A DNA stretch of 64,000 bases, taken from an uncultured Acidimicrobiales bacterium (GTDB lineage Bacteria > Actinomycetota > Acidimicrobiia > Acidimicrobiales > JANYDT01). Shown here piece by piece: positions 37,020-57,346 of this stretch. Position 1 is the stretch's first letter, and every line of letters starts with the position of its first letter. Location: the NCBI GenBank assembly GCA_963763135.1, contig CAVXNJ010000012.1, forward strand, positions 851,789 through 915,788, given 5' to 3'. The position numbers and the translations under genes were made by a program. The notes below the pieces were generated by a model that had not been told where the DNA came from, searched no databases, and saw nothing but the letters and a program-made list of their open reading frames with translations.

Positions 37020-38321
37020 TCATCGATCGACCTCGCCGAGCACCGGATCGATCGAGCTGATGATGGCAATCGCATCGGCCATCATGGCTCCACGCATCAT
37101 CGTCGGCATCGACTGCAGGTTCACGAACGACGCGCCTCGCCAGTGCATCCGGAACGGCTTCGTGCTTCCATCACTGACCATGTAGCAACCAACTTCTCCG
37201 CGGGGTGACTCGACTGGCACATAGACCTCGCCGGCCGGAACCTTGAAGCCGTCGGTGAACAACTTGAAATGATGGATCAGCGCTTCCATCGACTCGTCGA
37301 TACGACTGCGCGGCGGCGGCGTGATCTTCTTGTTCTGGGTTCGGTAATCGCCAGTCGGCATCATGTCGACGATCTGGCGGACAATCCGGATCGATTCGCG
37401 GATCTCGTTGAGGCGGATCGCGTAGCGGTCGAACGCATCGCCATGGGTACCGACGATCACGTCGAACTCCACCGCGTCGTAGGCGAGGTACGGCATATGG
37501 CGACGCAGGTCCCATTCGACGCCAGTAGAGCGCAGGATCGGGCCGGTCGCACTGAGGCCGATAGCTTCGTCTTGCGTGATCACCCCGACACCCTGGGTCC
37601 GGTCGATGAAGATCGGCTGACCCGTGAGCAACGTGTCGTAGTCGTCCATACGCGGCTCGATCGCGTCGCACAGTGCCAGGCAGTCGAACTGCCAGTCGCT
37701 CGGGAGATCCGCAGCAACGCCACCCGGACGGATGTAGTTGTGGTTCATCCGCAGGCCGGTGGTCTTCTCGAAGAACGAGAGCACTTCCTCGCGTTCACGC
37801 CACCCGTAGATCATCATGCCGACGGCACCGAGGTCCATGCCGTTCGTGGCCATGAACAACAGATGACTCGCCATGCGGTTAAGTTCCGACATGAGCATGC
37901 GGATCCACGTCGCCCGCTCCGGTACTTCGATCTCAAGCAGTTTCTCGGTGGAGAGGCTGAAGGCCAACTCGTTGAAGAAGGGCGAGAGGTAGTCCATGCG
38001 GGTGACGTTGGTGCCACCTTGCATGTACGTGAGCGTCTCGGCCGTCTTCTCCATACCGGTGTGCAGATAGCCCACTACCGGCTTGGTGCGAAGCACCTGC
38101 TCACCCTTGAGCTCCAACATGACGCGCAGCACGCCGTGCGTACTCGGGTGCTGCGGACCCATGTTGATGATCATCGTCTCGTCGTCGCCGAGTTCGATGT
38201 CGTAGTCGTTCACATCGAGAAGATCGACATCGCTGACGCCACGTAGAACGGCGCCCTGTTCACGGAGAAGTTCCTTAGCCGGCGTCTCGACCCGGCCCTG
38301 CATTTCCTGTCCGAAGTTCAT
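37020..38321 (-). CDS. nuoD: NADH-quinone oxidoreductase subunit D (14-subunit cluster)
   Basis: 433 aa with NMGPQHPSTHGVLRV, VGYLHTGMEK and C-terminal LGEVDR. Confidence 0.95.
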   Translation of the reverse strand: MNFGQEMQGRVETPAKELLREQGAVLRGVSDVDLLDVNDYDIELGDDETMIINMGPQHPSTHGVLRVMLELKGEQVLRTKPVVGYLHTGMEKTAETLTYMQGGTNVTRMDYLSPFFNELAFSLSTEKLLEIEVPERATWIRMLMSELNRMASHLLFMATNGMDLGAVGMMIYGWREREEVLSFFEKTTGLRMNHNYIRPGGVAADLPSDWQFDCLALCDAIEPRMDDYDTLLTGQPIFIDRTQGVGVITQDEAIGLSATGPILRSTGVEWDLRRHMPYLAYDAVEFDVIVGTHGDAFDRYAIRLNEIRESIRIVRQIVDMMPTGDYRTQNKKITPPPRSRIDESMEALIHHFKLFTDGFKVPAGEVYVPVESPRGEVGCYMVSDGSTKPFRMHWRGASFVNLQSMPTMMRGAMMADAIAIISSIDPVLGEVDR

Positions 38322-38323
38322 AG

Positions 38324-38839
38324 CTACCTCGCGGTTCCTTCTTTGAACTGCACGGGAATTCGGCCGGTGGCGTAGTCCTTACGCAAGGGATGCCCTTCCC
38401 AGTTGTCGGGCAACAGGATTCGGGTGAGATCGGGATGACCGTCGAAGCTGACACCGAGAAGGTCGTAGGCCTCACGTTCCATGGCTTCCGCCCCGGGGTA
38501 CAGGTCGTAAAGCGTCGGAACTTTGCAGTCGGACTCCGGGACCTGCACGCGGACACGGATGCGTTCCCGCTTGGCGTGTGAAAGCAGGTTGGAGACCACT
38601 TCAAAGCGTTCAGGCGCGACGCCCGCGGGAAGCTCCCGGGTGTGGTTGCCGAGGTAGTCGACGGCGCAAAGATCCGAGAGCTGAGCAAAGCCGTCGGCCT
38701 TCAGCGCTTTCACAACCTTCAGATAGTCAGTGCGCGTAGGATGCACGACCTTTTCGCCCCGGCTGTAGCTGACGGGTGCTCCGTGGAGTACTTCGGGGGC
38801 AGGCGGTGCGGTCTCGGTAGGAGTGGAGGTATCTGACAT
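38324..38839 (-). CDS. nuoC: NADH-quinone oxidoreductase subunit C (14-subunit cluster)
   Basis: 171 aa, 30-kDa subunit pattern (YPGAEAMEREAYDLLGVSFDGHPD). Confidence 0.9.
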   Translation of the reverse strand: MSDTSTPTETAPPAPEVLHGAPVSYSRGEKVVHPTRTDYLKVVKALKADGFAQLSDLCAVDYLGNHTRELPAGVAPERFEVVSNLLSHAKRERIRVRVQVPESDCKVPTLYDLYPGAEAMEREAYDLLGVSFDGHPDLTRILLPDNWEGHPLRKDYATGRIPVQFKEGTAR

Positions 38840-38844
38840 GGACG

Positions 38845-39393
38845 CTACTTCGGTCGTCCGATGGCAATCGTCGGAGGCGGCACGTCGAGGATGATCGAGG
38901 CGCCGGCTCCGGTCTCGTTACGGCGCTTGGTGATCTCGCCCGTGGCGATCTTTTCGTGGATCGTGAGAATCGCGTGGATGAGCGTTTCGGGTCCGGGCGG
39001 GCACCCGGGCGCGTAGACGTCGACGGGGACGATCTGATCGACGCCCTGCACGATCGCGTAGTTGTTGAACATGCCACCCGAGGAAGCGCACACGCCCATC
39101 GAGATGACCCACTTCGGTTCCATCATCTGGTCGTAGACCTGGCGAAGAACCGGAGCCATCTTCTGCGAAACGCGTCCGGCCACGATCATGAGGTCGGCCT
39201 GGCGCGGCGAAGCGCGAAACACCTCCATGCCAAAGCGCGACAGATCGAAGCGCGACGCACCGGTGGCCATCATCTCGATCGCGCAGCAGGCGAGGCCGAA
39301 CGAGGCCGGCCACACGCTGTTCTTGCGGGACCAGCTGACCAACTGCTCGACCGATCCGGTCAAGAAGTTGTGATTGAGATCTTCGAGTCCCAT
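38845..39393 (-). CDS. nuoB: NADH-quinone oxidoreductase subunit B (14-subunit cluster)
   Basis: 182 aa with [23 protein letters not shown] and GCPPGPE. Confidence 0.95.
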
Positions 39394-39396
39394 GGA

Positions 39397-39867
39397 CTAG
39401 GCAGCCTCTCCAGAGGGAGCAACCGGCTCCGGGCGACCAACGCGCCGGATTGTCGACGACGTCGACCGGGCATTGGTCAGGGTGTTTTCTGCTGAACGAA
39501 GCGCTGACACGGGTCCCCAGTCGAGCGCACCGTTGGAGATCAGATACGTGAAGGCGACGACAACTGCGGCGGAGAACATGATCATCTCGACGAGACCGAA
39601 CAGGCCCAATTGCCCGAACGACACGGCCCACGGGTACAAGAAGATGACCTCGATGTCGAAGATGATGAAGATCATCGCAACGAGGTAGAACCTCACCGGA
39701 AACCGTTCAGCCGGCTCGTGCGTGGGTACGATCCCGCACTCGTAGGGACCGATTTTTGCTGCGGTCTCTCGTCGCTTCGGCCCGAGAACGGCCGATGCAA
39801 CAAACGAGCCGAAGACGAAAAGCGTCGCTACGACAAGCAGCAAAAGGATCGGGAGATAATCACCCAC
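39397..39867 (-). CDS. nuoA: NADH-quinone oxidoreductase subunit A (14-subunit cluster) with C-terminal extension
   Basis: 156 aa with YECGIVP and FDIEVIFLYPWA. GTG start only 5 nt after the stop of the preceding membrane-protein gene, with a GAGGG Shine-Dalgarno inside that gene's 3' end. Confidence 0.9.
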   Translation of the reverse strand: MGDYLPILLLLVVATLFVFGSFVASAVLGPKRRETAAKIGPYECGIVPTHEPAERFPVRFYLVAMIFIIFDIEVIFLYPWAVSFGQLGLFGLVEMIMFSAAVVVAFTYLISNGALDWGPVSALRSAENTLTNARSTSSTIRRVGRPEPVAPSGEAA

Positions 39868-39872
39868 GGTTG

Positions 39873-40712
39873 CTACGCCCTCGCAGGTTTCAACGTTGCC
39901 ATGTGGGCCATCAGTTTCTTATCCCGCTTGTGCAGACTCAGAACGCTGATGACAAACAGGATTATGGAACACATGAAGATGGTGAAGCCGGGCAAGCGCT
40001 TCGATCCGCCGTCGCGATACCCGATCACATAGATCGGTTTCGTCGAGGAATCGACCACGAAGTTGCCTTTGGCGTCTTTGACCGGTTCGCCCGAGTCATC
40101 GAGCTTGTAGGTCTGGATGACCTCCACGATGTAGTGCTTCGAATGCAGCAGGCCCATCATGCGGTAGCTGGTCGGGTCGTACCACTTCTCGCCGTGGATC
40201 TTGCGCGGACGGATCTTGAATCGCTGATCTCCACCGGTTTCGTACATCGCAACCGAGGTGTAGCGCTCGGTTCCCGTGGCGGGGAAAAGCGCCGCACCAC
40301 CGTTGGCGACAGGCTTCTTCAGATAGGCACCGAGCGCTGCGCTGGAATCGCCGTAGGTGTTCGATCCCTCGGGGACAACCCGCCAACCCTTGACCTTCAC
40401 GTCGGCTTTGGCCGGGAGCGCTGCCACCTTTTCAAGCTGAGCCGACTTCGGGTCGGTGACTGCTTCGATGCCCTTCCAGGACGGATCGCGCCCCTTCAGG
40501 CCGATTCCGTACATCATCCACACGACGCACATCAACGCCATCCAACCCCAGAATGCGGCGTTGGCAAGCAGGAATCCCAGGCGGTTACCGATGTTGGTAG
40601 CGAGGATCACGTACGTGCTCCCGCAGAGAATGAGGAACATGATTCCCGGGAAGAGAATCCCGCGGATTGTCGGGTCCCACTTCAGAATGGCAAGAACAGC
40701 AGAAAGCATCAC
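39873..40712 (-). CDS. Membrane protein of unknown function, last gene of the bc module
   Basis: 279 aa with two N-terminal TM helices, a ~170-aa hydrophilic domain and a C-terminal TM helix. ATG overlaps the stop of the dihaem cytochrome c gene (ATGA). Confidence 0.6.
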   Translation of the reverse strand: MMLSAVLAILKWDPTIRGILFPGIMFLILCGSTYVILATNIGNRLGFLLANAAFWGWMALMCVVWMMYGIGLKGRDPSWKGIEAVTDPKSAQLEKVAALPAKADVKVKGWRVVPEGSNTYGDSSAALGAYLKKPVANGGAALFPATGTERYTSVAMYETGGDQRFKIRPRKIHGEKWYDPTSYRMMGLLHSKHYIVEVIQTYKLDDSGEPVKDAKGNFVVDSSTKPIYVIGYRDGGSKRLPGFTIFMCSIILFVISVLSLHKRDKKLMAHMATLKPARA

Positions 40713-41989
40713 AGGCCCCGCTCATAGTCGACGATGGCTTCGATTTGTTGGTCGGTGAGGGTGTTGGCGAAGTACGGCATGCCTCCACCACTCCAGTGGT
40801 TTACGCCACCGGTCCCGTAGGCCTCGAAATCGGCGACACCGTTCTTTATGAAGTCGATCTGGCTGGCTTTGTCGGGGAACTGACGTTTCAGCGAGTCCTT
40901 ACGAAGCGCCGGGCCGTAGAAGCCTCCGGCCTGCTCCTTCGGTTCGCCGTAGCTGTACCCGTTGGTGTGGCACCGGGCGCAGTTGAGGTTGAACAGGATT
41001 TCGCCGTCGGATTTGGCAACGTCGGCTTTCGCTGCATCGACGCGGGCCTGCGTGGAAGCCAGATCGGCTTCGGCTGCGGCGATGGCTGTCGCCCCGCCTG
41101 CAGCCTTTGCGTCATCGAGGACCTTTTGGGCAGCGGCGAGTGTGGTTTCTCCGTCGGCAACCGTCTTCTCGTTGGCCTTCTTCAGGTCTTCGAACTCCTT
41201 GGTGTTCGCTTCCTGTGCATCTTTTTGTGCTGCCACAAAAGCTGCGTTGTACGACTTGACCGCGTCACGGGTCTTGTCCCATGTATCGGTGTAGGCCTTG
41301 AGAGCGACAGGGTCCTCTTCGACCGCCACATGTTTGAGGTAGTTCACAAGATCGTCTATCTGTTGCGCGTTGCCGGGTCCACCGCCCAGAGTGCCCCAGG
41401 CCGGCATCGGGTTGTTCTTTGCTTTGCCGCGGCCATAGACCAATACGTTGCGAATCTGCTCGGGTCGGTACCGGAGAGCCACGTTGTTGATGCGGGGCGC
41501 GGTCCACGACACGGATTTGAGGACCTGCTTGCCCGTTGCGGAATCCATTACGGGGTTGTTGTCGGCGTCGTATTGCGGTACGAGCCACGAGGCCGCACCG
41601 CCGCCGCCGTTGGCGCCGTGGCACTTCGCGCAGTTGAAGCCGTTGTGCAGTGCTCCAAAAAGCTCCTCGCCCCGCTTCACGCTCCGCTTGTCGAAGCCGA
41701 AGATCGCGCCGGTTTGGCGGCTCGGTTCGTTCAGCCAGTACAGCGGGACCGACAGCGCCACGATCGTCATGGTGACCAGGGCCCACCCCAGCCAGCGGTC
41801 GAGGCGCGGGCCTTCGAAGACTTCATCATCGGGGGCCGACTTGCGGTTCGGCGCGTTGAGGAAGCTGTGCACGATGTCTGGCGTCGTGCGACGGTTCTCC
41901 AAAACGATGTACACCGCCCACGCCAACAGCGCGGCAACGAGTAAAACGAGCGCTACGGCCCGCTGGGTTGGAAGTGCAGCGACTATCAC
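40709..41989 (-). CDS. qcrC: Membrane-anchored dihaem c-type cytochrome (QcrC-like) with long inter-domain insertion
   Basis: Two CxxCH motifs (CAKCH at ~41618-41632, CARCH at ~40968-40982). Met-ligand contexts NPMPAW and GGMPYF. Two N-terminal TM helices. 426 aa. Confidence 0.8.
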   Translation of the reverse strand: MIVAALPTQRAVALVLLVAALLAWAVYIVLENRRTTPDIVHSFLNAPNRKSAPDDEVFEGPRLDRWLGWALVTMTIVALSVPLYWLNEPSRQTGAIFGFDKRSVKRGEELFGALHNGFNCAKCHGANGGGGAASWLVPQYDADNNPVMDSATGKQVLKSVSWTAPRINNVALRYRPEQIRNVLVYGRGKAKNNPMPAWGTLGGGPGNAQQIDDLVNYLKHVAVEEDPVALKAYTDTWDKTRDAVKSYNAAFVAAQKDAQEANTKEFEDLKKANEKTVADGETTLAAAQKVLDDAKAAGGATAIAAAEADLASTQARVDAAKADVAKSDGEILFNLNCARCHTNGYSYGEPKEQAGGFYGPALRKDSLKRQFPDKASQIDFIKNGVADFEAYGTGGVNHWSGGGMPYFANTLTDQQIEAIVDYERGL

Positions 41990-42049
41990 GATCAGATTCC
42001 TTGGCGATCAGTACGACGGGACAGCAAACTACTTGATGACATCACAGGC

Positions 42050-42946
42050 TCAGTGTCCGCCGCCGACACAGTGCGGACCTTCTGCGGTCTGACCTGTCGT
42101 GTCGGTACCGTCGGCCGGACCCTGGCGTACGCCAGAGGTGTCGATGGTGACGACCCCATCGGTGACGGCCACGTCGAAGCGGTCGAGTCCGCGGGGAGCG
42201 GGACCGCCGCGGCGTTCGCCGACGCGGTTGTACTGCGAGCCGTGGCACGGACATTCGAACCACTGTGAGCTTTCGCACCACGGCACCTTGCAGCCGAGGT
42301 GGACACACTTCTGGTAAATACCGACAAGACCTTGTTCCATGCCGGCGTAGACGCCAGCCGAATAGACCTTCTGGGCCTTTTCGAGCACGGCTTTTTCCGT
42401 CGGATACGGGACGATGTAGCTACGGGCTTCGGCGAGGTACTTCGGGCCTTTGGAGGAGGTCAGCTCGTTTTTGATGTCGTCGAGTTTTCCGACGGTGACC
42501 TTGGCGCCGAATCCACCGCCAAGCGACGGCCACAGGAACGCCAGCACGGCGCCACCGAAACCGCCGAGACCGAGCAGCATCATGACGATCGTGCCCCGGT
42601 TGAGGAACTGGCGGCGGCTGACGCCGAGCTGTTCGTAGTCAAGCGGCGGACGAATGACATCGGGCAGGCTCGGTGCCGGGTTGGCAACGACTTCTTCAGA
42701 GATACCGCGACGTGCGAGGGCTACGGAACGCTCAGCGCTACGACCGCCCGGGGGCGGCGGAACCGAGGTGCCGGCTTTCGCCGCAGCGCGTTCAGCTTTG
42801 GCCCGGGCGCGGTCGCGTCGGACGGTTTCACGGGCCAGGAGCCCGGTGGCTGCATTGCGGTCGCTCTTGCGAGCGGTGACAACAAGAAAGCCGACGGCCG
42901 CGACAGCAATCACGGCGATGACGATTAGTAAGGCGATTCCACTCAT
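42050..42946 (-). CDS. qcrA: Rieske [2Fe-2S] subunit of a menaquinol:cytochrome c reductase
   Basis: CVHLGC and CPCHGS boxes. SRRQFLNRG twin-arginine-like motif before the second TM helix, plus an extra N-terminal TM helix. Confidence 0.88.
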   Translation of the reverse strand: MSGIALLIVIAVIAVAAVGFLVVTARKSDRNAATGLLARETVRRDRARAKAERAAAKAGTSVPPPPGGRSAERSVALARRGISEEVVANPAPSLPDVIRPPLDYEQLGVSRRQFLNRGTIVMMLLGLGGFGGAVLAFLWPSLGGGFGAKVTVGKLDDIKNELTSSKGPKYLAEARSYIVPYPTEKAVLEKAQKVYSAGVYAGMEQGLVGIYQKCVHLGCKVPWCESSQWFECPCHGSQYNRVGERRGGPAPRGLDRFDVAVTDGVVTIDTSGVRQGPADGTDTTGQTAEGPHCVGGGH

Positions 42947-42970
42947 GAGCGTTTCCTTAGTTCGAGGCTC

Positions 42971-43804
42971 TTAGAGCTCGAAGAAGATGCCTTCCCGCCA
43001 CGGGAAGATGAAGTTGTAACCAGGGCCTCGGAAGAACGAGCTGATGATCACGAGGACCGCCCAGAACATCAAGAAGATAGAGAACATCGAGATCGCAATC
43101 TTGCGATCCTCGGGCTTGTTCGACGGGTTCTTGTCGACGTAGGGCGACATGCCGAGGATGAACAGGCCCATACCGGGAATCGTCACGCCGGCCACCATCG
43201 GGTCGAACATCGTGAGCAGTTCCTGGAGACCGAGGAAGTACCAAGGGGCCTTCGCCGGGTTCGGTGTCTGGTTGTAGTTGGCGAGCGCGAGAAGCGGGGC
43301 ATTGACGAACGTCGAAAGCACCATCAACACGACCAGGCAGGCGAGCGCCGCAACGAATTCGCCGACCAACAGGTGGGGCCACGTACTGACCTTGTCGGTC
43401 GGAACGGCCTTCACGTCTTGGATGGACCCCGCCTTGACGACGGTGAGGAGCCGCTGCGTATGGCCATCGGGACCAACAAGCCCGGCCGTAGATGACGTGG
43501 CAAGCGCTCCGGCCGCGGCGGCCGCCGCACCGGTCGGTTTATCGAGAACGGCCACGCCACCCCCCGCCGGCGCTGCACCACCATCGGCAGCAGCCGCTTT
43601 CGCGGCCTTCGCGGCTTGGCTGCGGGCCAGAAGATGCGACGGGATCTTCCCGGTCTTCTCGGCTTCGGCGTAGCTCGCGGCAGCATCATCTGCTGCCGGC
43701 GCGCTGGCGGCGGGTGCCTCGGGCGCGGCGCCACCGGACTTCTCCGCCAGCTTGCGCGCTTTGGCCTCCGCGGACTTCCGCTTCATTTCTTCGAGATCAG
43801 CCAT
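42971..43804 (-). CDS. Cytochrome b C-terminal domain protein (b6f subunit IV-like) with Ala-rich N-terminal extension
   Basis: 277 aa. The last ~150 aa hold three TM helices and a Qo-site motif region, KAPWYFLGLQELL, corresponding to PEWYF of subunit IV. The first ~120 aa are A/K/E/P-rich low complexity. Confidence 0.8.
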   Translation of the reverse strand: MADLEEMKRKSAEAKARKLAEKSGGAAPEAPAASAPAADDAAASYAEAEKTGKIPSHLLARSQAAKAAKAAAADGGAAPAGGGVAVLDKPTGAAAAAAGALATSSTAGLVGPDGHTQRLLTVVKAGSIQDVKAVPTDKVSTWPHLLVGEFVAALACLVVLMVLSTFVNAPLLALANYNQTPNPAKAPWYFLGLQELLTMFDPMVAGVTIPGMGLFILGMSPYVDKNPSNKPEDRKIAISMFSIFLMFWAVLVIISSFFRGPGYNFIFPWREGIFFEL

Positions 43805-43850
43805 GGTTCTGCTCAGTTCTCACAATGGTTGGGAAATGGGAATCGCCGGA

Positions 43851-44624
43851 TCACAGAGGACCGGAGATACCGCCGTCTTTACGGACACGCCAGAAGTGGA
43901 TGGCCATGAAGATCACGATGACAAACGGGAACAACAACACGTGAAGCACGTACCAGCGCAGCAGTGTGTTCGTTCCGATCTCGACGCCGGACAGCAGCAC
44001 GAATCGCGCCTGGCCACCAAAGACCGGCGTGTAACCGATCATGTTGGTACCTACGGTCACGGCCCAAAGTGCCAACTGGTCCCACGGGAGGAGGTAGCCG
44101 GTGAAGGAAAGGAGGAGGGTCAGCGTCAGCAGGATCACGCCGATGATCCAGTTGAACTCACGGGGAGCCTTGTACGCCCCGTGGTAGAAGACGCGAGCCA
44201 TGTGCAAGAACACCGAGAGCACCATGAGGTGGGCACCCCATCTGTGCATATTTCGGACGAGCAGGCCGAACGACACCGCCGTGTGAAGCGTCTGGATGTC
44301 TTGCCATGCCAGGGCTTCGGTTGGCCGGTAGAAGAACATCAAGAAGATGCCGGTCACCGTGAGGATGATGAACAAGAAGAAGGACAAACCACCGAGGCAG
44401 AGCGTGTAGCTCACCTTGACGGCATGGCGCTTCACCTTCACCGGGTGAAGGTGGTACAGCAGCGAGTTCATGATGACGTAGCTGCGGTTACGGGGCGAGT
44501 CGCTGTAACCCTTACGGAAGATCGAGCCCGGGCGGAAGATCGAGTTCCAGGCTTGGCTGCCTTGAACTTTGTCTACGGTCTCGGCGAGTTTGGCACTCGG
44601 TCCTGGCTTCATTGGTGTTGCCAC
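43851..44624 (-). CDS. qcrB: Cytochrome b6-type protein (N-terminal four-helix cytochrome b domain)
   Basis: 257 aa. Helix B His pair (MHRWGAHLMVLSVFLH, i/i+14) and helix D His pair (LHVLLFPFVIVIFMAIH, i/i+15, the b6-type spacing). LCLGG matches the YCLGG of b6/Bacillus QcrB. Confidence 0.88.
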   Translation of the reverse strand: MATPMKPGPSAKLAETVDKVQGSQAWNSIFRPGSIFRKGYSDSPRNRSYVIMNSLLYHLHPVKVKRHAVKVSYTLCLGGLSFFLFIILTVTGIFLMFFYRPTEALAWQDIQTLHTAVSFGLLVRNMHRWGAHLMVLSVFLHMARVFYHGAYKAPREFNWIIGVILLTLTLLLSFTGYLLPWDQLALWAVTVGTNMIGYTPVFGGQARFVLLSGVEIGTNTLLRWYVLHVLLFPFVIVIFMAIHFWRVRKDGGISGPL

Positions 44625-44687
44625 AAGGTCTCCTGCAGTATTCGGTACAACGAAAAGAGTGGGGTAAGGGGGCCGACGGCGTAGCGC

Positions 44688-45047
44688 TTAGAAGCGCATC
44701 CCGTAGGAGTAGCCGTGTTTGTTGTCGCGCATGTGCTGGTCGCCGTCGCGTGGGGCGACGCCGGCCTTGCCCATGATGATCACGCCGGTCGGGCAGCGGT
44801 CCACACAGAGACCGCAGCGGGTACAGACGTCTTCGTCGACGACGAAGATCACGTGGTCATCGGGATCGGTACCCGGGGCGACCACATTCGTGGAGTCTTC
44901 AACCGTGCCCGCAGCCAGCATGTGAATGCACTTCCACGGACAGATGTCGACACAGCCCTCGCACATGATGCACTCGGACTGGTCAATGTGCAGGAACTGC
45001 TTGGGCTTGACGCTTTTGTTCAGCTCGTCGACCGTGATCTCCGCCAA
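44688..45047 (-). CDS. 2x[4Fe-4S] ferredoxin-domain protein; true start probably ATG 45100, with one base missing in a homopolymer
   Basis: CIMCEGCVDICP and CTRCGLCVDRCP motifs. The only in-frame start is TTG 45047, with no Shine-Dalgarno. An ATG at 45100 with GAGAAAGG 8 nt upstream joins this frame if the G6 run 45074-45079 were G7. Confidence 0.8.
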   Translation of the reverse strand: MAEITVDELNKSVKPKQFLHIDQSECIMCEGCVDICPWKCIHMLAAGTVEDSTNVVAPGTDPDDHVIFVVDEDVCTRCGLCVDRCPTGVIIMGKAGVAPRDGDQHMRDNKHGYSYGMRF

Positions 45048-45102
45048 CGTGTAATTGCCGGGGAAGTACGGGAGGGGGGACTCGCTTCGCTTTTCGCCAT
45101 GG

Positions 45103-45618
45103 TTAGGCCTTTCTCACCAGCGGACGACCGTAGGTCGAACTTGTTTCGAGTGCCTTGAGCTCAGCGGCCTTCTTGCCACGTCGCTGCCAACCGGTCCACA
45201 TGAAGCCGTGGATTCCGAGGAAGATGATGTACAGCGTCGCCGCGATGATGTCGCGGATCGTCTGCTTCGTGATCGTCACCTTGCCGCGGCCGCCAAAGTC
45301 GATTCCTTCGGGCCAGAGCACGTTCTTCGAATGACTGAAGAAGTTGCTTTCCCACGACTTCGGGGTGAGCCGACCCAGAGGGCCGATTGGGACACCCTTG
45401 ATATCGGAACGCCAATTCATCGTGTTGCCATTTGCCCACTTCAAGAATGTGTCGGGCACGATTCCGTAGGCGAGAACGAAGACCCAAAACAGCACCAAAC
45501 CGGCCACCATGGCCTCGCCCCAGGTCAACGGGGTGCCGAGAGGTCGCTTTTTGCCGTATGCCCAAATCGCCCCGACAGTGACGACGAGAGCAAGCATTGA
45601 TCCGAAGAACGCAACCAC
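45103..45618 (-). CDS. Small membrane protein of unknown function, first gene of the bc/nuo array
   Basis: 171 aa with about 3 TM helices (MLALVVTVGAIWAY, MVAGLVLFWVFVLAYGIV, IIAATLYIIFLGIHGFMW). No family recognised. Confidence 0.6.
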   Translation of the reverse strand: MVAFFGSMLALVVTVGAIWAYGKKRPLGTPLTWGEAMVAGLVLFWVFVLAYGIVPDTFLKWANGNTMNWRSDIKGVPIGPLGRLTPKSWESNFFSHSKNVLWPEGIDFGGRGKVTITKQTIRDIIAATLYIIFLGIHGFMWTGWQRRGKKAAELKALETSSTYGRPLVRKA

Positions 45619-45672
45619 TCGTTTGACCTATCTATCCTTGGATTCGGGCCAGCAGAACACGTTGTGAGCGCC

Positions 45673-45690
45673 TTGTGAAGCGGTTCACTA
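45673..45690. promoter_or_regulatory. Candidate Rex operator (ROP-like) in the divergent promoter region
   Basis: TTGTGAAgcggTTCACTA versus the Streptomyces-type Rex operator TTGTGAA-N4-TTCACAA (1 mismatch). An extra TTGTGAG half-site lies at 45662-45668. It sits 55 nt upstream of the first gene of the minus-strand array. Confidence 0.6.
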
Positions 45691-45948
45691 AGTCGGATCT
45701 GAGAGCCGGTGAAAATCTGACCTCCATTTCTACCACGGCCATTCGCCCCTAGGCCTAATCGTCGGGAGTAAACAAAGGTTCAAAGCGATCACAATTTACG
45801 ATCGTTCATCGTGGAGACTGCAGACACATTCACCGAACCGGAAGGAAACGCCAGGAATTGGAAAAGTTTCCTCAGTTCGGGTCCGTTGGTTAGGCCCTCC
45901 CGTGTTTCATCGCATAGATTCAGGGGGTTCAGATTTCCCGGAGGAACC

Positions 45949-46734
45949 GTGGCTGAGATTCCACAACACTTGCTCGACAAGGCCAAGGCGCGGCGCGCCT
46001 CCCTTGCCGGTGCGCCGATCGAAGAAAATTCCCCTGCCGTTCCGGCTGCCGCTGCAGCAGCGACGCCCGCCGCGGCCAAGGCCGCTGCCCCTGCCGCCGC
46101 TGGCGGTGGAGATGGTGGGGCTCGAACGCCCGCTGCGGGTGCAGCGGCGATACCGTCGACCCCGCCTCCACCCCGGGGCACCGGGTTCGCCAAGATGGGT
46201 TCGGTGTTTCTACTTGTGGCGGTGCCGCTTTGGGGCATCTTCATGTTCAACTCGTTCGCCAAGCCGTTCTCCAAGGTAGCTACGCCCGAACAGCAGGGTG
46301 CGACGCTGTTCGCGGCCAACTGCGTTTCGTGCCACCTCGCCAACGGTGCCGGTTGGGACGCCGGTGGTATTGGTCGCGCCCTTTACAACGGTGAAGCTGA
46401 GAAGACGTTCCCGGCGCCGCTCGACCAGGTGGCGTTTGTGAAGCGAGGCTCCTGCACGGCCGGCACCCCCTACGGCAACCCGAAGCGCGAGGGCGGCCAG
46501 CACATCGCTCAGCAAAAGGGCCTAATGCCTGCCTTCACCGGCGTGTTGACCGATGAGGAGATCCTCTACGTCGTTCAGTACGAACGATCGATTCTGCGAG
46601 ATGGCGGCGTATGGCCGCAGGACATTCTCGCCGCCGTCGGGGCCACCCCAGACCCCGCAAACGTGCCCGGCCAGCCCGTAGTGATCAACGCCGACGCACT
46701 CACCAAGGCTGTCGACGCCGTCTGTCCTTCCTGA
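45949..46734 (+). CDS. Membrane-anchored monohaem class I c-type cytochrome
   Basis: CVSCH haem motif and GLMPAF Met-ligand context. TM helix VFLLVAVPLWGIFMF preceded by an A/P-rich linker. Start taken at GTG 45949, after GGAGGA. Confidence 0.8.
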   Translation: MAEIPQHLLDKAKARRASLAGAPIEENSPAVPAAAAAATPAAAKAAAPAAAGGGDGGARTPAAGAAAIPSTPPPPRGTGFAKMGSVFLLVAVPLWGIFMFNSFAKPFSKVATPEQQGATLFAANCVSCHLANGAGWDAGGIGRALYNGEAEKTFPAPLDQVAFVKRGSCTAGTPYGNPKREGGQHIAQQKGLMPAFTGVLTDEEILYVVQYERSILRDGGVWPQDILAAVGATPDPANVPGQPVVINADALTKAVDAVCPS

Positions 46735-46757
46735 TCCCGCTTTACTGCTTCGGACTA

Positions 46758-46781
46758 CGCACCCCTTCGGGGGTGCGTTTT
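46758..46781 (+). terminator. Rho-independent terminator after the cytochrome c gene
   Basis: CGCACCCC-ttcg-GGGGTGCG followed by TTTT, 24 nt after the stop codon. Confidence 0.85.
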
Positions 46782-46966
46782 CGCGTCTGCGCATCGGAAT
46801 CTGACCGTCGAGCCGATGCGACGCGTATCCGCCAACCGTCCCGCAGTGACTCGGTTGGCTCACGACCGACCCTTTCAACCACATCCTTGCAACTACCCAC
46901 ATCCTTACAACTACATAGCGCGCCCTCGCCTACGCTGACTCTGTGGCCGACGACGAGGAATACGAC

Positions 46967-47299
46967 ATGCCGACGGACATGGTTTACCTGCCCGATGGCG
47001 AGCCCGACTGGGACACGTATTACGCGAACATTATCGGCACGGTCGAGCCAGAACCGATGCCTCCGACGCTGCTGCAGCGTTTTCGTGGCACCTCTCAGGT
47101 CGTCGGAGCAATCGGTCTCGGGATTCAGCGAGCGATCGAACCGCACAAGGTCAAGCAGGAAATTGTCGTGCAACGTGATGATTCCGGGGATCCTGACAAC
47201 CCCGATAAGGAACTCCACCTCGATTTCGACCCCGATGACCCGCGTCAAACGAGGGCGATCGTGCGCCCTCACAACCGGAAATCGACCGGCGACGAATAA
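46967..47299 (+). CDS. Acidic hypothetical protein
   Basis: 110 aa from ATG 46967 (GAGGAA 7 nt upstream); the ORF track starts at GTG 46943. No recognisable motif. Coding status rests on ORF length and Shine-Dalgarno only. Confidence 0.45.
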   Translation: MPTDMVYLPDGEPDWDTYYANIIGTVEPEPMPPTLLQRFRGTSQVVGAIGLGIQRAIEPHKVKQEIVVQRDDSGDPDNPDKELHLDFDPDDPRQTRAIVRPHNRKSTGDE

Positions 47300-47474
47300 C
47301 AAACGCTAGGTCCATCAGATATTCCGGGAGATTTTCCTTGACTGAGGAGTCTGAGAATCTGTACCGCCAACGTGACTCTCGCCTCACATCTTTCTCATCA
47401 CTCGGGCGTTAACTACTGATGTGAACTCAACTCTCCGAGTCACTGGCAATCAACAACTCAAAGGGGGTTCCTCG

Positions 47475-48203
47475 ATGGCCACTCTCACTTATCCCGCATA
47501 TCCCACGGTTCCTACACGGCTAGCGACGAGCTTTCCAGCCAACTCGACCGCCAGCTCTGCATCCAACGAAACACCCAGCCCCGCCCGCCGAGCCCGAGCT
47601 AAACGTGGCGACGGCGACCGGTTGCGAGACGAAATCCTCGACGCTGTCGATGCAATCCTCACCCGTACCGGCAAAGCCGACTCCGTATCCATCAGGGCAG
47701 TAGCCGAGCAGGTCGGCTGTACTCCTCCCGCCATCTACCTGCACTTTTTCGACAAGAACGAGTTGCTGTTCGAGGTCTGCACGCGCCGATTCCTCCAACT
47801 CAACGCCAAGATCGACGAAGCCACCAAGGACTTCACCGATCCCATTGAAGTTCTTGCCGCCGGAACTCGGGCCTACGTCGCTTTCGGACTCGCCCAACCC
47901 GAGTATTACCGCATCCTGTTCATGGGCAAGCCCATCCTCACCCCGGAGCAACTTGATGAACTCCGTTCGAGTGGCATCACCGGGCTCACGCAACTCGTCG
48001 AGCGTTGCCAGAACTGCATCGACGCAGGTGCCGTCCAGATGCGAAACGCCAAGCTCATGGCGTTCGGCATATGGGCTATCGCTCACGGAGTCGTGTCACT
48101 CATGATTTCCAAGCCGAATATCGAGTGGCCAAAGGTCGACGTGCTCCTCGGCCATCTTCTCGACACCCATCTGGCCGGACTCCGGGTCGCCCCGAGCGCA
48201 TAA
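47475..48203 (+). CDS. TetR/AcrR family transcriptional regulator
   Basis: HTH region DSVSIRAVAEQVGCTPPAIYLHFFDKNELL. ATG 47475 is preceded by AAGGGGG. Confidence 0.88.
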   Translation: MATLTYPAYPTVPTRLATSFPANSTASSASNETPSPARRARAKRGDGDRLRDEILDAVDAILTRTGKADSVSIRAVAEQVGCTPPAIYLHFFDKNELLFEVCTRRFLQLNAKIDEATKDFTDPIEVLAAGTRAYVAFGLAQPEYYRILFMGKPILTPEQLDELRSSGITGLTQLVERCQNCIDAGAVQMRNAKLMAFGIWAIAHGVVSLMISKPNIEWPKVDVLLGHLLDTHLAGLRVAPSA

Positions 48204-48260
48204 CGCCTTAGTCCGATCCAGCGTGCAGACCGGTTGCGAGCGTGGGGCTCGTACGGCCAA

Positions 48261-48291
48261 CCGAGTTGAGCATCCTATGCTCCTCGGTTTT
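48261..48291 (+). terminator. Rho-independent terminator after the TetR gene, nested in a larger inverted repeat
   Basis: CCGAGttGAGCATcctATGCTCCTCGG followed by TTTT. An outer 17-18 bp inverted repeat lies at 48219-48236 / 48292-48308. Confidence 0.7.
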
Positions 48292-48582
48292 CAACCGGCT
48301 GCACGCTGAATCGATTGTGGCGGGCCCAACTTCCGTTCCGCGTCGAGTTCCCCACAGGCGGCCCTCATCCGGTCTCGCTTCGTTCTCGCGGACATGCTGG
48401 CTGTTCGTTTATTCGCCGGCAAACAACACCGGATGCGATCGCGTGGTCCAGGGGGTCACCCGGTCGCATCCGGTTCGGCGTTAAGTTCGCTTATTTACTG
48501 AAATTTTGTATGCGTACTGAACGTATGCGTACTGAACATATGCGTAACACAGACGCTACGTCCCTGCCTGAATGGCCGACTG

Positions 48583-49905
48583 CTACAGGGTCTTGGCCAC
48601 GTTCGCCGCGGCGATGCCGGCAGCTTCGATTGTTCGATCGATGTCGGCGTCGGTATGAGCGAAACTCGGGAACAGGGCCTCGTAGGCGCCTGGCGCCATA
48701 GCAATGCCCTGCCGCAACATCTCATGGAAGAACGGCGCGTAGAGTCCGGCCTCGTTTGCCGCTTTCGCATCGTCGAAGTTCGTGACCGGAGTTGCACCAA
48801 GGTGGATGCCAACCAGTGTTCCGACGACCGGAACCTGAGCCGGGAGTCCACCACCGCGAATTGCTTCCTGCAAACCGGCCGCGAGCTTGTGAGCGGTGGC
48901 CGTGAGTGCCTCGTAACGATCGGGAGTGCACTGTTGCAGGACCGCCAGACCGGCCGCAGTTGCCATGGGGTTGCCGCTCAGGGTGCCGCCTTGATAGACG
49001 GGTCCGAGCGGAGCGAGATGAGACATGGTCTTGGTCGTGCCCCCGAACGCGCCGACCGGCATACCGCCACCGATGATCTTGCCGAACGCCCAAATATCGG
49101 GGATGACGCCCGACCACACCGTGGCACCACCGGCGCCGAGGCGAAATCCAGTGATGACTTCGTCGAACAACAACAGCGCACCCGCTGCATCGCAGGCCTT
49201 GCGGAGACCTTCCAAAAACCCAGGTGCCGGAGGAACGAGACCCATGTTTGCCGCAATCGGTTCGACCGCAACGACGGCGACATCTGATCCGATTTCGGGG
49301 ATCACGTTGAACGGTGCCACGACCGTGTCGGCTACCGCGCTCGGAGGAACTCCGTCGCTTCCCGGCAGTCCCTGATTTGCAACCCCGCTCCCACCCGCAG
49401 CGAGCAGCGAATCGGTGGCGCCGTGATAGCACCCGGCAAACTTGATGACTTTCGACCGTCCGGTGATCCCCCGCGCGAGCCGAATCGCGCTCATGGCCGC
49501 TTCGGTACCGCTAGAGCACATGCGGACCATTTCGATACCCGGTACACGCTCCATGATGGCTTCGGCCAAGAGGACTTCGCGGTACGTCGGCGCACCGAAC
49601 GTGCTGCCCTGCGTCGCCGCTTCCTGCATCGTCTCCACCACGAATGGGTCGGCGTGGCCGAGAATCGAGGCTCCGTAGGACTGGACGTAGTCGATGTACT
49701 CCCGACCTTCGACGTCCCATACGCGAGCGCCGAGGCCGCGGGCCACAAAGTAGGGCGTCCCGCCAACGCTGCGAAAAGCACGAACCGGTGAGTTGACTCC
49801 ACCGACAAGTACTTGCGAAGCCCGGGCGAAGAGCGACTCGTTGGTGGCGCCGAAACCGGTGCCGTCGGCCGTTGGTTTGGTGTTGGAACTGCTCGAAGTG
49901 CTCAT
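48583..49905 (-). CDS. hemL: Glutamate-1-semialdehyde 2,1-aminomutase
   Basis: 440 aa, class III aminotransferase with GSA-AM pattern (GGVNSPVRAF, YVQSYGASILGH, FDEVITGFR, GKIIGGGMPVGAFGG). Confidence 0.93.
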   Translation of the reverse strand: MSTSSSSNTKPTADGTGFGATNESLFARASQVLVGGVNSPVRAFRSVGGTPYFVARGLGARVWDVEGREYIDYVQSYGASILGHADPFVVETMQEAATQGSTFGAPTYREVLLAEAIMERVPGIEMVRMCSSGTEAAMSAIRLARGITGRSKVIKFAGCYHGATDSLLAAGGSGVANQGLPGSDGVPPSAVADTVVAPFNVIPEIGSDVAVVAVEPIAANMGLVPPAPGFLEGLRKACDAAGALLLFDEVITGFRLGAGGATVWSGVIPDIWAFGKIIGGGMPVGAFGGTTKTMSHLAPLGPVYQGGTLSGNPMATAAGLAVLQQCTPDRYEALTATAHKLAAGLQEAIRGGGLPAQVPVVGTLVGIHLGATPVTNFDDAKAANEAGLYAPFFHEMLRQGIAMAPGAYEALFPSFAHTDADIDRTIEAAGIAAANVAKTL

Positions 49906-50891
49906 TGCATTGACTCAGCGATCTCACGGGCGAAATAGGTCAGGATCATGTCGGCGCCGGCTCGCTTTACCGCGGTGAGTTGCTCAACGGCCATGGCGTC
50001 GCCATCGATCCATCCGCGCTCGGCGGCCGCTTTGATCATCGAGTACTCGCCCGATACGTGGTAGGCAGCCAACGGGACATCGACGGCAGCACGGACTTTC
50101 GCGATGATGTCGAGATAGGTGACAGCCGGTTTCACCATCACCATGTCGGCTCCTTCCGCGATGTCGAGCAGCACCTCTGCCACGGCCTCACGGGCGTTGT
50201 GCCAATCCTGCTGGTAACCCTTTCGATCCCCGCCACCGGCGATGCGCACATCGACTGCATCACGGAAGGGGCCGTAGAGGGCCGTCGCATACTTGGCGGA
50301 ATACGCCAGGATCGGGGTGTCGGCGTAACCGGCAGAGTCGAGCCCGGCTCGGATCGCTCGGACCTGTCCATCCATCATTCCGCTCGGGGCCACAACCTGA
50401 GCGCCCGCCTCAGCCTGCGCGATACCTATGCGCGCATAGAGTTCGAGCGTGGCGTCGTTCAGAACGTTGCCGTGCGCATCGAGCACTCCACAATGCCCAT
50501 GGCTGGTGTACTCGTCGAGGCAGAGATCGCTCATCAAAACGACCGAATCACCCAGATCGTCGCGCAGTTGCTTGAGCGCAATCTGCATGATCCCATCGGG
50601 GTTCCAAGCTTCGGATCCCTCAGGATCCTTCGTCGACGGCACCCCGAACAAAATCACGCCGGGGACGCCCAAATCCGTAAGTTCGCGTACTTCTTTGCGA
50701 AGGCTTTCGACCGTATGTTGGACGATTCCCGGGAGCGATGAAATGGGCTGAGGTTCAGTAATCCCCTGCCGCACGAACAGCGGTGCGATGAGATCGTCGA
50801 CCCCCAGGTGGGTTTCCGCCACCAGCCGACGAAGGGCCGGGGTCCGACGAAGCCGTCGCATACGACGCGACGGAAAGAGATCAGCGCTCAC
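49902..50891 (-). CDS. hemB: Porphobilinogen synthase (5-aminolevulinate dehydratase)
   Basis: 329 aa with RRMRRLRRTPALRRLV, DLCLDEYTSHGHCGV, SAKYATALYGPFRDA and VKPA..YLD. Confidence 0.93.
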   Translation of the reverse strand: MSADLFPSRRMRRLRRTPALRRLVAETHLGVDDLIAPLFVRQGITEPQPISSLPGIVQHTVESLRKEVRELTDLGVPGVILFGVPSTKDPEGSEAWNPDGIMQIALKQLRDDLGDSVVLMSDLCLDEYTSHGHCGVLDAHGNVLNDATLELYARIGIAQAEAGAQVVAPSGMMDGQVRAIRAGLDSAGYADTPILAYSAKYATALYGPFRDAVDVRIAGGGDRKGYQQDWHNAREAVAEVLLDIAEGADMVMVKPAVTYLDIIAKVRAAVDVPLAAYHVSGEYSMIKAAAERGWIDGDAMAVEQLTAVKRAGADMILTYFAREIAESMQ

Positions 50892-54918: not shown

Positions 54919-55854
54919 TCACCGCTTTTTGAGAAGTTCGCCGCCGCCGAGCCGCAAAATTTCTGCGGCCACAAGCTGACCGAGAGCGACCGGATCAAAC
55001 CCGCTTGAGTCGAACCGGATGACCTTGGTGCCGTCGGGCGATGCCACAAGAGCGTCGAGGGAAAATTCCGTAGGGCCATCGCCCGCTTCGAGGCCGATCG
55101 TCTCGTACGGCACAGCCAGCGCCGCCACCGGAAGATCGCAACCGGTGCCGAGCTCAGCCAGAAAGGCGCGCTCAGCGGTTAGCGCAGCGTGGGAGTCGGG
55201 ATCGTTGATCAGGCTCAACGCCCGAATCGTGGATTCATCGTCGGACCGGCACTCAACGGCAATAGCTCCCTGGCCGACCATCGGAAGCATCCGGTTGGGG
55301 CTGAGCACCTCGGCGATGTGCTCGGTGAGCTCAAGACGCTGCAACGAGGCCATCGCCATCACAATTGCGTCGAAGCTTTTCGACTTCTCAAGGCGCGTGT
55401 TGATGTTTCCGCGCAGTTCGTGAAAGACGATGTCGGGTCGCATCGACGAAAGCAGCGCCCGGCGGCGAACGGAGCCGGTAGCGATCGAGCCACCCTGCGG
55501 AATGTGCGCAAGGGCCTTCCCCACCAGAACATCACGGACGTCGGCCCGCTCCGGAACCGCGACGATCGTTAGGCCGGGAGTAGGAGCAGACGGCAGATCC
55601 TTCGCCGAGTGAACCGCGAAATCAGCGCGACCCTCAAGAACAGCGGCTTGCACTTCTTTGACGAACACACCCTGGCCACCGATTTGGTGCAACGGCGTTC
55701 CGATGGCTTGCGTACGGTCTCCGAGCGTGTCGACGAAGACCAGTTCGTGGCTCGTGTCGGGGATCAGCTTCTTGAGAAGTTGGCCGACGTGGAGCGTCTG
55801 CCATTTCGCGAGCGGGCTGGAGCGGGTCGCGGCCCGCAGCAGGCCGGGGCTCAC
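54919..55854 (-). CDS. hemC: Hydroxymethylbilane synthase (porphobilinogen deaminase)
   Basis: 311 aa with TRSSPLAKWQ, GGQGVFVKEV, HSAKDLP, and GTGCDLPVAA holding the cofactor Cys. Confidence 0.92.
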   Translation of the reverse strand: MSPGLLRAATRSSPLAKWQTLHVGQLLKKLIPDTSHELVFVDTLGDRTQAIGTPLHQIGGQGVFVKEVQAAVLEGRADFAVHSAKDLPSAPTPGLTIVAVPERADVRDVLVGKALAHIPQGGSIATGSVRRRALLSSMRPDIVFHELRGNINTRLEKSKSFDAIVMAMASLQRLELTEHIAEVLSPNRMLPMVGQGAIAVECRSDDESTIRALSLINDPDSHAALTAERAFLAELGTGCDLPVAALAVPYETIGLEAGDGPTEFSLDALVASPDGTKVIRFDSSGFDPVALGQLVAAEILRLGGGELLKKR

Positions 55855-57119: not shown

Positions 57120-57346
57120 GTGCACCTCGACGAGCCATCGAAAGCGCGGGTACGGGCCGGGCCGGAGCGTCAGCGTTGAAGATCGGCGGAACAAGAGATT
57201 TCGAGCCACAACGAGACGTGGACCCGAATCCGGTTCGGCGCGACAGAGGACAACTCACGGTCATACAGTCTGACCTGTTTCGGGCGTTGAACCAAACGCT
57301 GGGAACCGATGAGCACGATTCGTGACCATTGGCTGAGGATTTCACG

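Follow-up and report, generated by a model that had tools for sequence, protein, structure and literature searches.

This report concerns a cluster of respiratory genes from an uncultured Acidimicrobiales bacterium, located in a 64,000-nt stretch of DNA that is referred to here as the window (positions 851,789 to 915,788 of contig CAVXNJ010000012.1, assembly GCA_963763135.1). Seven tightly spaced open reading frames (ORFs) occupy the minus strand between 39873 and 45618. In order of transcription they specify a 171-residue membrane protein (mp171), a 2x[4Fe-4S] ferredoxin, cytochrome b6, a subunit IV-like protein, a Rieske protein, a dihaem class I cytochrome c and a 279-residue membrane protein (mp279). 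An initial annotation, made from the sequence alone, had proposed this set of genes, and all seven are present as ORFs with the positions, lengths and order that it gave. Pfam and NCBIfam searches recover the five named families, that is, all but mp171 and mp279; the G+C content is about 0.61 across the whole region, and an Rfam scan of 38000-49000 at E<=0.1 gave no match. The Rieske/cytochrome b core is of a known type, catalogued by sequence and biochemically uncharacterised. The conserved seven-gene module, with its dedicated ferredoxin and two unnamed families of membrane protein, appears to be an undescribed variant.

The cytochrome b is split, in the manner of b6f and Firmicute complexes, as had been noticed at the outset. 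Cytochrome b6 (257 residues, 43851-44624) and subunit IV (277 residues, 42971-43804) are specified by separate ORFs that match different Pfam families, Cytochrome_B (E 6e-45) and Cytochrom_B_C. The b6 protein aligns end to end and without gaps with the 215-residue b6 of a solved cytochrome b6f (1q90_B, E 1e-46), such that each window residue number is that of b6 plus 41. In this alignment, Cys76 of the YTLCLGG motif corresponds to Cys35, the covalent haem ci ligand in b6. The haem ligands His127 and His141 correspond to His86 and His100, His228 and His243 to His187 and His202, and Arg248 to Arg207 of b6f. The two His of helix D (His228 and His243) have 14 residues between them and thus the b6-type i/i+15 spacing that the initial annotation had pointed out. 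That annotation had also picked out the haem ci Cys in LCLGG. The residue was correctly chosen but its codon was misplaced: it lies at 44397-44399, and not at 44407-44409, which is out of frame and reads CTA. The 41-residue N-terminal extension has no b6f counterpart, and residues 21-79, a cytoplasm-facing segment that includes the extension, are at least 95% invariant.

Subunit IV begins with an Ala-rich cytoplasmic N-extension of about 140 residues, carrying the motif IPxHLLxRS, and continues into three helices that include the Qo motif. This motif reads APWY (residues 186-189, 43238-43249), as had been reported for this position; a solved cytochrome b (8smr_I) has the Qo motif PVWY at the aligned site. 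Thus neither the Cys nor the APWY assignment arises from misalignment. A hydropathy scan with a 19-residue window and a threshold of 1.6 flagged only two of the three C-terminal helices of subunit IV; the other, at about residues 205-222, is predicted from the sequence itself and from how it aligns to cytochrome b. Residues 114-145, just ahead of the first helix on the cytoplasmic side, are at least 95% invariant. A search of PDB sequences with the N-extension gave only spurious matches to ankyrin and myosin light chain.

The Rieske protein (298 residues, 42050-42946; Pfam and NCBIfam matches) has an extra N-terminal helix, a basic cytoplasmic loop of about 95 residues, a twin-arginine translocation (Tat) motif SRRQFL, a second helix and a cluster domain with the boxes CVHLGC and CPCHGSQY. 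Its best relative in the PDB is 9rk3_A, the Kuenenia protein Kustd1480 (E 6e-15). The cytochrome c (426 residues, 40709-41989; Pfam match) is membrane-anchored, with two N-terminal hydrophobic segments, CxxCH motifs at residues 120 and 337, and some 90 poorly conserved, Ala/Lys-rich residues that separate the haem domains; a sequence search of the PDB with it gave no match. The Rieske protein and the cytochrome c share an extra N-terminal helix and cytoplasmic loop that precede the helix leading to the outer domain. By our count, each monomer of the whole complex would contain some 17 membrane helices, with a large mass on the cytoplasmic side.

The ferredoxin (Pfam Fer4 families) contains both of its CxxCxxCxxxCP motifs and has neither a signal peptide nor a membrane helix. 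It is closest to the wire-type dicluster modules NuoI, FwdF and FwdG; its best NCBIfam similarity is to NuoI, far below the cutoff (42.9 against 113), and a weak match to NapF (E 4e-7) is also below cutoff. More than 100 homologues are 137 residues long and start MAKTDANPPMPxFPGDY. The equivalent N-terminus (MAKSEASPP...) is present in the window from ATG 45098-45100, preceded at 2 nt by the mp171 stop codon, but its reading frame is not that of the remainder of the gene. At 45074-45079, six C in a row are one base short relative to every homologue compared, these having the equivalent of seven bases at this site (codons Pro-Pro-Leu/Met). Frame analysis and comparison with four other loci (L001, L030, L040 and L048) show that one added C restores the 137-residue ferredoxin, the full gene then spanning 44688-45100. 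The longest uninterrupted ORF, of 119 residues from TTG 45047 (44688-45047), is a version truncated by the apparent 1-nt deletion, which the initial annotation had not recognised. Either the assembly is in error at this homopolymer, or the frameshift is real and translation re-initiates at TTG 45047.

The ferredoxin ranks second in conservation among the proteins of the operon, with a mean column identity of 0.83. The other proteins for which this was computed, which do not include the nearly invariant b6, give values of 0.52-0.72 (0.64 for Rieske, 0.56 for cytochrome c). Its family is small: when a full-length member was compared by phmmer with 1.84 billion cluster representatives, only 25 matched at E<=1e-30 and 147 at E<=1e-10, and many of these were fragments. 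All members with a named organism are from Actinomycetota, and the gene sits between a mp171 homologue and b6 in every member whose context was viewed.

No family could be named for the two flanking membrane proteins in the initial annotation, and this is still so: neither mp171 (45103-45618) nor mp279 (39873-40712) has any match in Pfam or NCBIfam searches. By hydropathy and charge, mp171 has three hydrophobic helices with the N-terminus outside, an outer loop of about 70 residues and a basic cytoplasmic tail ending S-x-YGRPLVRKA, in which S-x-YGRPL is invariant; almost all of its 330 homologues are unnamed or 'hypothetical'. The protein mp279 starts with two helices that have an invariant TN-G-R loop between them, followed by an outer alpha/beta domain of about 175 residues, a C-terminal helix, the sequence LH-RD and a basic tail. 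Neither protein has a conserved Cys or a haem or cofactor motif, and mp279 has a single conserved His near the cytoplasmic end of its last helix. AlphaFold2 models of both were obtained with good confidence scores (pLDDT 84 for mp171 and 83.6 for mp279). In Foldseek searches against the PDB, the mp171 model had no match below E 2.9 and the mp279 model none below E 0.36. The top Foldseek match of mp279, to cytochrome c'-beta, was rejected as not significant and because mp279 has no haem motif. Homologues of mp279 at 29-32% identity still lie between cytochrome c and nuoA. The adjacency of mp279 to nuoA could suggest a complex I protein, a reading that was rejected because the mp279 homologue stays after cytochrome c in lineages where nuo is elsewhere.

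The genes are closely packed, the GTG start of mp279 overlapping the cytochrome c stop by 4 nt. The initial annotation regarded the arrangement as unusual in an actinobacterial context, but it turns out to be standard across Acidimicrobiales. When one genome per species was scanned, b6 relatives turned up at 586 loci, of which the best 80 (80-91% identical) were analysed. Nearly all of these 80 are assigned to Acidimicrobiia, Acidimicrobiales, Microthrix, Ilumatobacteraceae, Aquihabitans or unclassified Actinomycetota, and a few carry obviously mislabelled names of metagenome-assembled genomes (MAGs). The complete, colinear set of seven genes occurs in 59 of the 80 loci. Another 19 lack one or more of the genes; many of these are short and end inside the cluster, perhaps at contig ends. 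The key residues are retained almost without exception: the motif is YTLCLGG in 79 loci and YTLCFGG in one, so that the Cys of CxGG is present in 80 of 80, as are the four haem His; APWY is found in 74 of 74 and the nine ferredoxin Cys in 75 of 75, and the Rieske boxes CxHLGC and CxCHGS-x-Y are essentially invariant. The clustering of the seven genes is far beyond chance, and their arrangement is a class-wide trait, not one peculiar to the source genome.

The remaining two loci, both from Ilumatobacteraceae MAGs, have a solitary b6 (L066, 6977-7747; L080, 6980-7765). The b6 is intact and 84-85% identical, with YTLCLGG and all of the His kept, and there is no ferredoxin, subunit IV, Rieske or cytochrome c gene near it; an ABC transporter gene lies downstream in L066. 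These could be second, orphan copies or the result of rearrangement. A 932-residue ORF that seems to fuse b6 to other sequence in L066 was rejected as an artefact of open frames in high-G+C DNA, as only its C-terminal 250 residues match anything.

More distant members, with ferredoxins 37-42% identical, were found on three contigs (L084, L085 and L086), and in each the gene order is that of the window: a small membrane protein, ferredoxin, b6, subunit IV, Rieske, cytochrome c and a protein of about 250-270 residues. Profile hidden Markov models built from our own alignments recognise the mp171 counterparts in L084 and L085 (E 5e-11 and 7e-5) and also those of mp279 (E about 1e-17), and both modules retain YTFCLGG and APWY. 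Thus the ferredoxin and flanking genes do accompany the same type of bc complex in other genomes, a co-occurrence whose absence the initial annotation had named as grounds for refuting it. In L085 and L086 there is a 4-nt overlap between the ferredoxin gene and the mp171 homologue before it, and the cytochrome c and mp279 genes share a coordinate in L086 and are separated by 2 nt in L085. Overlaps of this kind are characteristic of genes for stoichiometric partners and suggest that these proteins are too. In L084, the mp279 homologue is followed by a 34-codon ORF (9468-9572) with a single hydrophobic helix, which may be a small Pet-like subunit; the window has no room for such an ORF in the 5-nt gap between mp279 and nuoA.

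By its motifs and split b, rather than by a phylogenetic tree, the core would belong to the 'APWY clade' of cytochrome b defined by Kao & Hunte (2014; PMC4122944), no member of which was characterised. Their set included five split actinobacterial cytochromes b, from Rubrobacteridae and from one Acidimicrobidae (Ilumatobacter coccineum), so the combination of split b, APWY and the CxGG Cys had already been published for Acidimicrobidae. CxGG is frequent in the clade, mostly as WCMGG and not the LCLGG of the window lineage, and haem ci binding there was untested (PMC4122944). The paper covers cytochrome b and the Rieske protein and makes no mention of the ferredoxin or of the two membrane proteins. 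Its authors speculated that APWY complexes operate in reverse, a proposal at odds with the housekeeping context found here. According to Baymann et al. (2012), the "green clade" and scattered, laterally transferred complexes are marked by a split b, by seven helices and by the Cys. The window complex has the split b, the 14-residue helix D spacing and the aligned Cys that go with this b6-type group.

The best solved relatives of the window b6 are those of cytochrome b6f, with which it shares the four His, Cys35, Arg207, the helix D spacing, the 4+3 split of helices and a Rieske box CPCHGSQY. However, there is no cytochrome f and none of the small Pet subunits, a dihaem class I cytochrome c being present instead; the Qo motif is APWY rather than PEWY; b6 and subunit IV carry N-extensions (41 and about 140 residues); and the operon includes a ferredoxin gene. 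The b6f protein models also fail, with scores of 204 against 325 for PetB (NF002990) and 70 against 250 for PetC (NF045928). A non-photosynthetic relative is the b6c complex of Bacillus (QcrABC), a menaquinol-oxidising enzyme with a split b6, haem ci on a CxGG Cys and a c-type haem acceptor. QcrABC differs in having PDWY as its Qo motif and a subunit IV fused to cytochrome c, where the window has APWY and a separate dihaem cytochrome c, and in having no counterpart of the ferredoxin, mp171 or mp279. The QcrCAB complexes of Mycobacterium and Corynebacterium share with the window complex their phylum, a dihaem cytochrome c acceptor and a Rieske protein with extra N-terminal helices. Their QcrB is nevertheless a single unsplit protein with PDWY and no ci Cys, and the respective models (NF050120/050121/050122) scored 113.5 against 500, 21.3 against 275 and 30.4 against 200.

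The initial annotation compared the ferredoxin gene with the elaborated bc complexes of anammox bacteria and with the Geobacter systems. The first analogy is a useful one. The anammox complexes Kuste4569-4574 and Kustd1480-1485 have a b6-like and subunit IV-like core and a modelled cytoplasmic redox module with [4Fe-4S]/[3Fe-4S] sites, and Kustd1480 is the closest solved relative of the window Rieske protein; in the paper on its structure (9rk3), a cytoplasmic NAD(P) reductase was modelled with iron-sulphur sites leading to the b6 dimer near haem cN. They differ in having a large FAD/NAD(P) reductase and multihaem or HAO-like P-side cytochromes, where the window has a 137-residue dicluster protein and a dihaem cytochrome c. 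An additional haem-b site proposed for the anammox complex, with a His placed by AlphaFold3 32 residues before the ci Cys, was considered and rejected, the same offset falling on Pro44 in the window b6 (by residue arithmetic, not alignment). The Geobacter analogy is not supported, the published ExtOPQ cluster having no ferredoxin gene. The window b6 scores above the equivalog cutoff for ExtP (NF040969; 299.7 bits against 290), which puts it in the same b6 subfamily. However, subunit IV fails the ExtQ model (51 against 150), no ExtO model is among the NCBIfam matches of the Rieske protein, and the published gene list of the ext cluster (gsu2930-2937) has 4- to 12-haem cytochromes and an outer-membrane conduit but no ferredoxin. 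No ext operon context (ExtO, ExtQ or the multihaem ExtM, ExtN and ExtS) was found at the window locus. The ExtP name, 'selenite/tellurite reduction operon b-type cytochrome', would be a misannotation for Acidimicrobiia b6, and one that pipelines using this equivalog would presumably make. No mention of the ferredoxin or two membrane proteins in a Rieske/b6 operon of Acidimicrobiia, Microthrix or Ilumatobacter was met in the literature, in a search that left most subscription journals uncovered, so that a prior mention is possible.

With slightly more confidence than doubt, we read the cluster as specifying a housekeeping menaquinol:cytochrome c oxidoreductase (complex III), an APWY-type b6c complex with a bound ferredoxin and two accessory membrane subunits. 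A housekeeping role is suggested by the conserved position of the module, which adjoins genes for complex I (nuo), haem synthesis, Rex, cytochrome c maturation and oxidases; the module is also the only Rieske/b complex within the stretches examined. The quinol is presumably menaquinol, as in cultured Acidimicrobiia, and its oxidation would take place at a Qo site without the customary carboxylate. The first electron would pass through the Rieske protein and the membrane-anchored dihaem cytochrome c to a tethered monohaem cytochrome c, specified by a divergent gene upstream, and from there to an oxidase. The second would pass from haem bL (His127/His228) to haem bH (His141/His243) and on to a covalent haem ci (Cys76) at Qi.

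The position of the ferredoxin gene and its conservation lead us to propose, with moderate confidence, that its product is a bound cytoplasmic subunit linking haem ci/Qi to a low-potential donor. Its anchor would be mp171, together with the invariant extensions that b6 and subunit IV have on the cytoplasmic side; the core is unusually elaborate and well conserved on this face, and residues 21-79 of b6 and 114-145 of subunit IV fit a conserved docking surface. The two clusters could then act as a wire between haem ci/Qi and a low-potential cytoplasmic partner, most likely allowing electrons at the level of reduced ferredoxin to enter the menaquinone pool; a low-potential branch had been put forward as a possibility in the initial annotation. 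The cytoplasmic iron-sulphur chain modelled as leading to the anammox b6 dimer is a precedent for such wiring. On the other face of the membrane, mp279 would be an accessory subunit paired with cytochrome c. A more ambitious claim can be made, namely that complex III of Acidimicrobiia and related Actinomycetota has a built-in 2x[4Fe-4S] subunit that exchanges electrons directly with haem ci/Qi, so that the enzyme is a quinol:cytochrome c reductase and at the same time a ferredoxin-level:menaquinone oxidoreductase (or, running in reverse, makes low-potential electrons by bifurcation), with two new families of membrane subunit; in this full form we think it rather unlikely.

Several points weigh against the interpretation of the cluster as a ferredoxin-bearing complex III. 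The evidence that the ferredoxin, mp171 and mp279 are members of the mature complex is all genomic. The module specifies no flavoprotein or other cytoplasmic partner, leaving a wire without an identified far end, and the tails of the ferredoxin differ between Acidimicrobiales and the distant lineages, so that the mode of docking would not be universal. The ferredoxin gene of the window is itself frameshifted and, if the frameshift is real, either the protein can do without its first 18 residues or the gene is in decay here. The status of sole complex III applies to the stretches examined and not to the whole genome, where a canonical qcrCAB may be present. Lastly, biochemical proof of haem ci occupancy comes only from Bacillus, heliobacteria and oxygenic phototrophs (PMC4122944).

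The conserved genomic association might have other explanations. The ferredoxin, and perhaps mp171 and mp279, could be biogenesis factors rather than subunits, an explanation that is unlikely yet retains an appreciable chance. The ferredoxin might be a NapF-like protein that matures the Rieske protein before Tat export, which would accord with the weak NapF match and with the position of the Rieske Tat motif after a long cytoplasmic loop, and the membrane proteins might stand in for the CCB pathway of haem ci attachment. To our knowledge, the attachment factors CCB1-4 have been reported only from oxygenic phototrophs, so some other system would be needed here, and the seven products show no further Pfam family match; in addition, the distant modules adjoin cytochrome c maturation genes. 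However, assembly factors are usually less conserved than their clients, the reverse of what is seen for the ferredoxin with respect to the Rieske protein and cytochrome c. The overlaps of the accessory genes with their neighbours suggest a 1:1 stoichiometry. Apart from the one His of mp279, the two membrane proteins also lack the pattern of Cys and His that is typical of haem handling.

The ferredoxin could also be imagined as a soluble, general-purpose protein that is merely co-transcribed, with mp171 and mp279 as supernumerary structural subunits that have no redox role, for example as supercomplex glue. Such subunits are common in bc complexes and are lineage-specific, subunit IV of Rhodobacter sphaeroides being one example; the absence of cofactor motifs in mp171 and mp279, and of any gene for a redox partner in the module, would be as expected. 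We nevertheless regard this as quite improbable, as the ferredoxin family is small and confined to Actinomycetota where named, and its gene is always between the mp171 homologue and b6 in the contexts viewed, a fixed position that a general-purpose ferredoxin would not keep over such divergence. Very improbable, in our estimation, is a complex that runs mainly in reverse, its low-potential electrons leaving through the ferredoxin in a bifurcating or reverse reaction of the kind put forward for NAD(P)H production in anammox bacteria. This direction is the one suggested by Kao & Hunte for APWY complexes (PMC4122944). Moreover, the closest relative of the Rieske protein is the high-potential Kustd1480 (+335 mV) and the Ser-x-Tyr pair is kept. 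Against this, the module lies beside genes for complex I, haem synthesis and oxidase in lineages that are mostly aerobic heterotrophs, Acidimicrobiia have no obvious need for uphill electron flow, and no second Rieske/b complex was seen in the stretches examined.

The role of haem ci, and whether electrons from ferredoxin enter b6f directly, have been open questions since the first b6f structures (PMC5600118). In the module described here, a ci-type complex is permanently encoded together with its own ferredoxin-like protein across a class of mostly aerobic bacteria. If the more ambitious claim made above is correct, the route from ferredoxin to haem ci that has long been postulated for cyclic electron flow through b6f would have a natural counterpart outside photosynthesis. 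Some of the hosts can be cultured, and several, including Microthrix and Ilumatobacteraceae, are abundant in lakes, oceans, soils or activated sludge, so the question could become approachable by ordinary biochemistry and electron cryo-microscopy without photosynthetic membranes. The idea that APWY marks reverse-running complexes is affected as well, since an APWY complex seems to occupy the normal place of complex III in Acidimicrobiia. The mp171 and mp279 families merit formal definitions, and the ExtP name is misleading for the window b6.

The module is closely linked to complex I. The gene nuoA (39397-39867, minus strand), the first of the complex I operon, begins 5 nt downstream of mp279, and nuoA and nuoB directly follow the module in most of the 80 loci. 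The gaps between mp279 and nuoA range from 1 to 964 nt, 34 of 63 being under 60 nt; as they were measured between the ends of tblastn hits, these are upper bounds. No terminator-like site was found at the mp279/nuoA junction, while promoter and terminator scans gave counts at the level of shuffled sequence. The arrangement suggests that complex III and complex I, with its 14-gene nuo operon, may be expressed from one very long transcript in Acidimicrobiales. Linkage to nuo is absent in the distant Actinomycetota modules, the neighbours of which in L084-L086 include ResB/CcsA or CcmABCEF, CtaA/CtaB, COX1/COX2, hemL and hemB.

Upstream of the module, in most of the 80 loci, lies a divergent gene for a monohaem cytochrome c (Pfam match), which is probably the electron acceptor of the complex. 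In the window it is on the plus strand, and its longest ORF, of 307 residues from GTG 45811, is probably over-extended. A GGAGGA sequence lies 3 nt before GTG 45949, and a start there (45949-46734, about 261 residues) matches the N-termini in other loci. The protein has one membrane helix, preceded by a cytoplasmic N-terminus with the motif MAEIPQHLL. In a six-frame translation of the window, the pattern (T/K/R)-(E/K)-I-P-x-H-L-L-x-(R/K)-(S/A)-x-A occurs only twice, in the N-extension of subunit IV (43622-43645, minus strand) and at the N-terminus of this cytochrome (45958-45981, plus strand). There are 140 occurrences in 75 of the 80 Acidimicrobiales loci, all of the listed matches being in subunit IV or the monohaem cytochrome c, and subunit IV often carries two copies; the motif is absent from the L084 and L085 modules. 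The motif may serve both proteins as a docking or targeting peptide in the cytoplasm and tether the cytochrome c to the complex.

Upstream of the respiratory genes, a plus-strand ORF for an acidic 118-residue protein without a Pfam or NCBIfam match (46943-47299) lies between the cytochrome gene and a TetR-family gene (47421-48203). Genes for haem synthesis come next, as hemL (48583-49905) and hemB (49902-50891), which also flank the module in L084 and L085, and further on hemC (54919-55854) and hemA (55851-57209), the last being followed by a gene for a Rex-type redox regulator (57347-57997).

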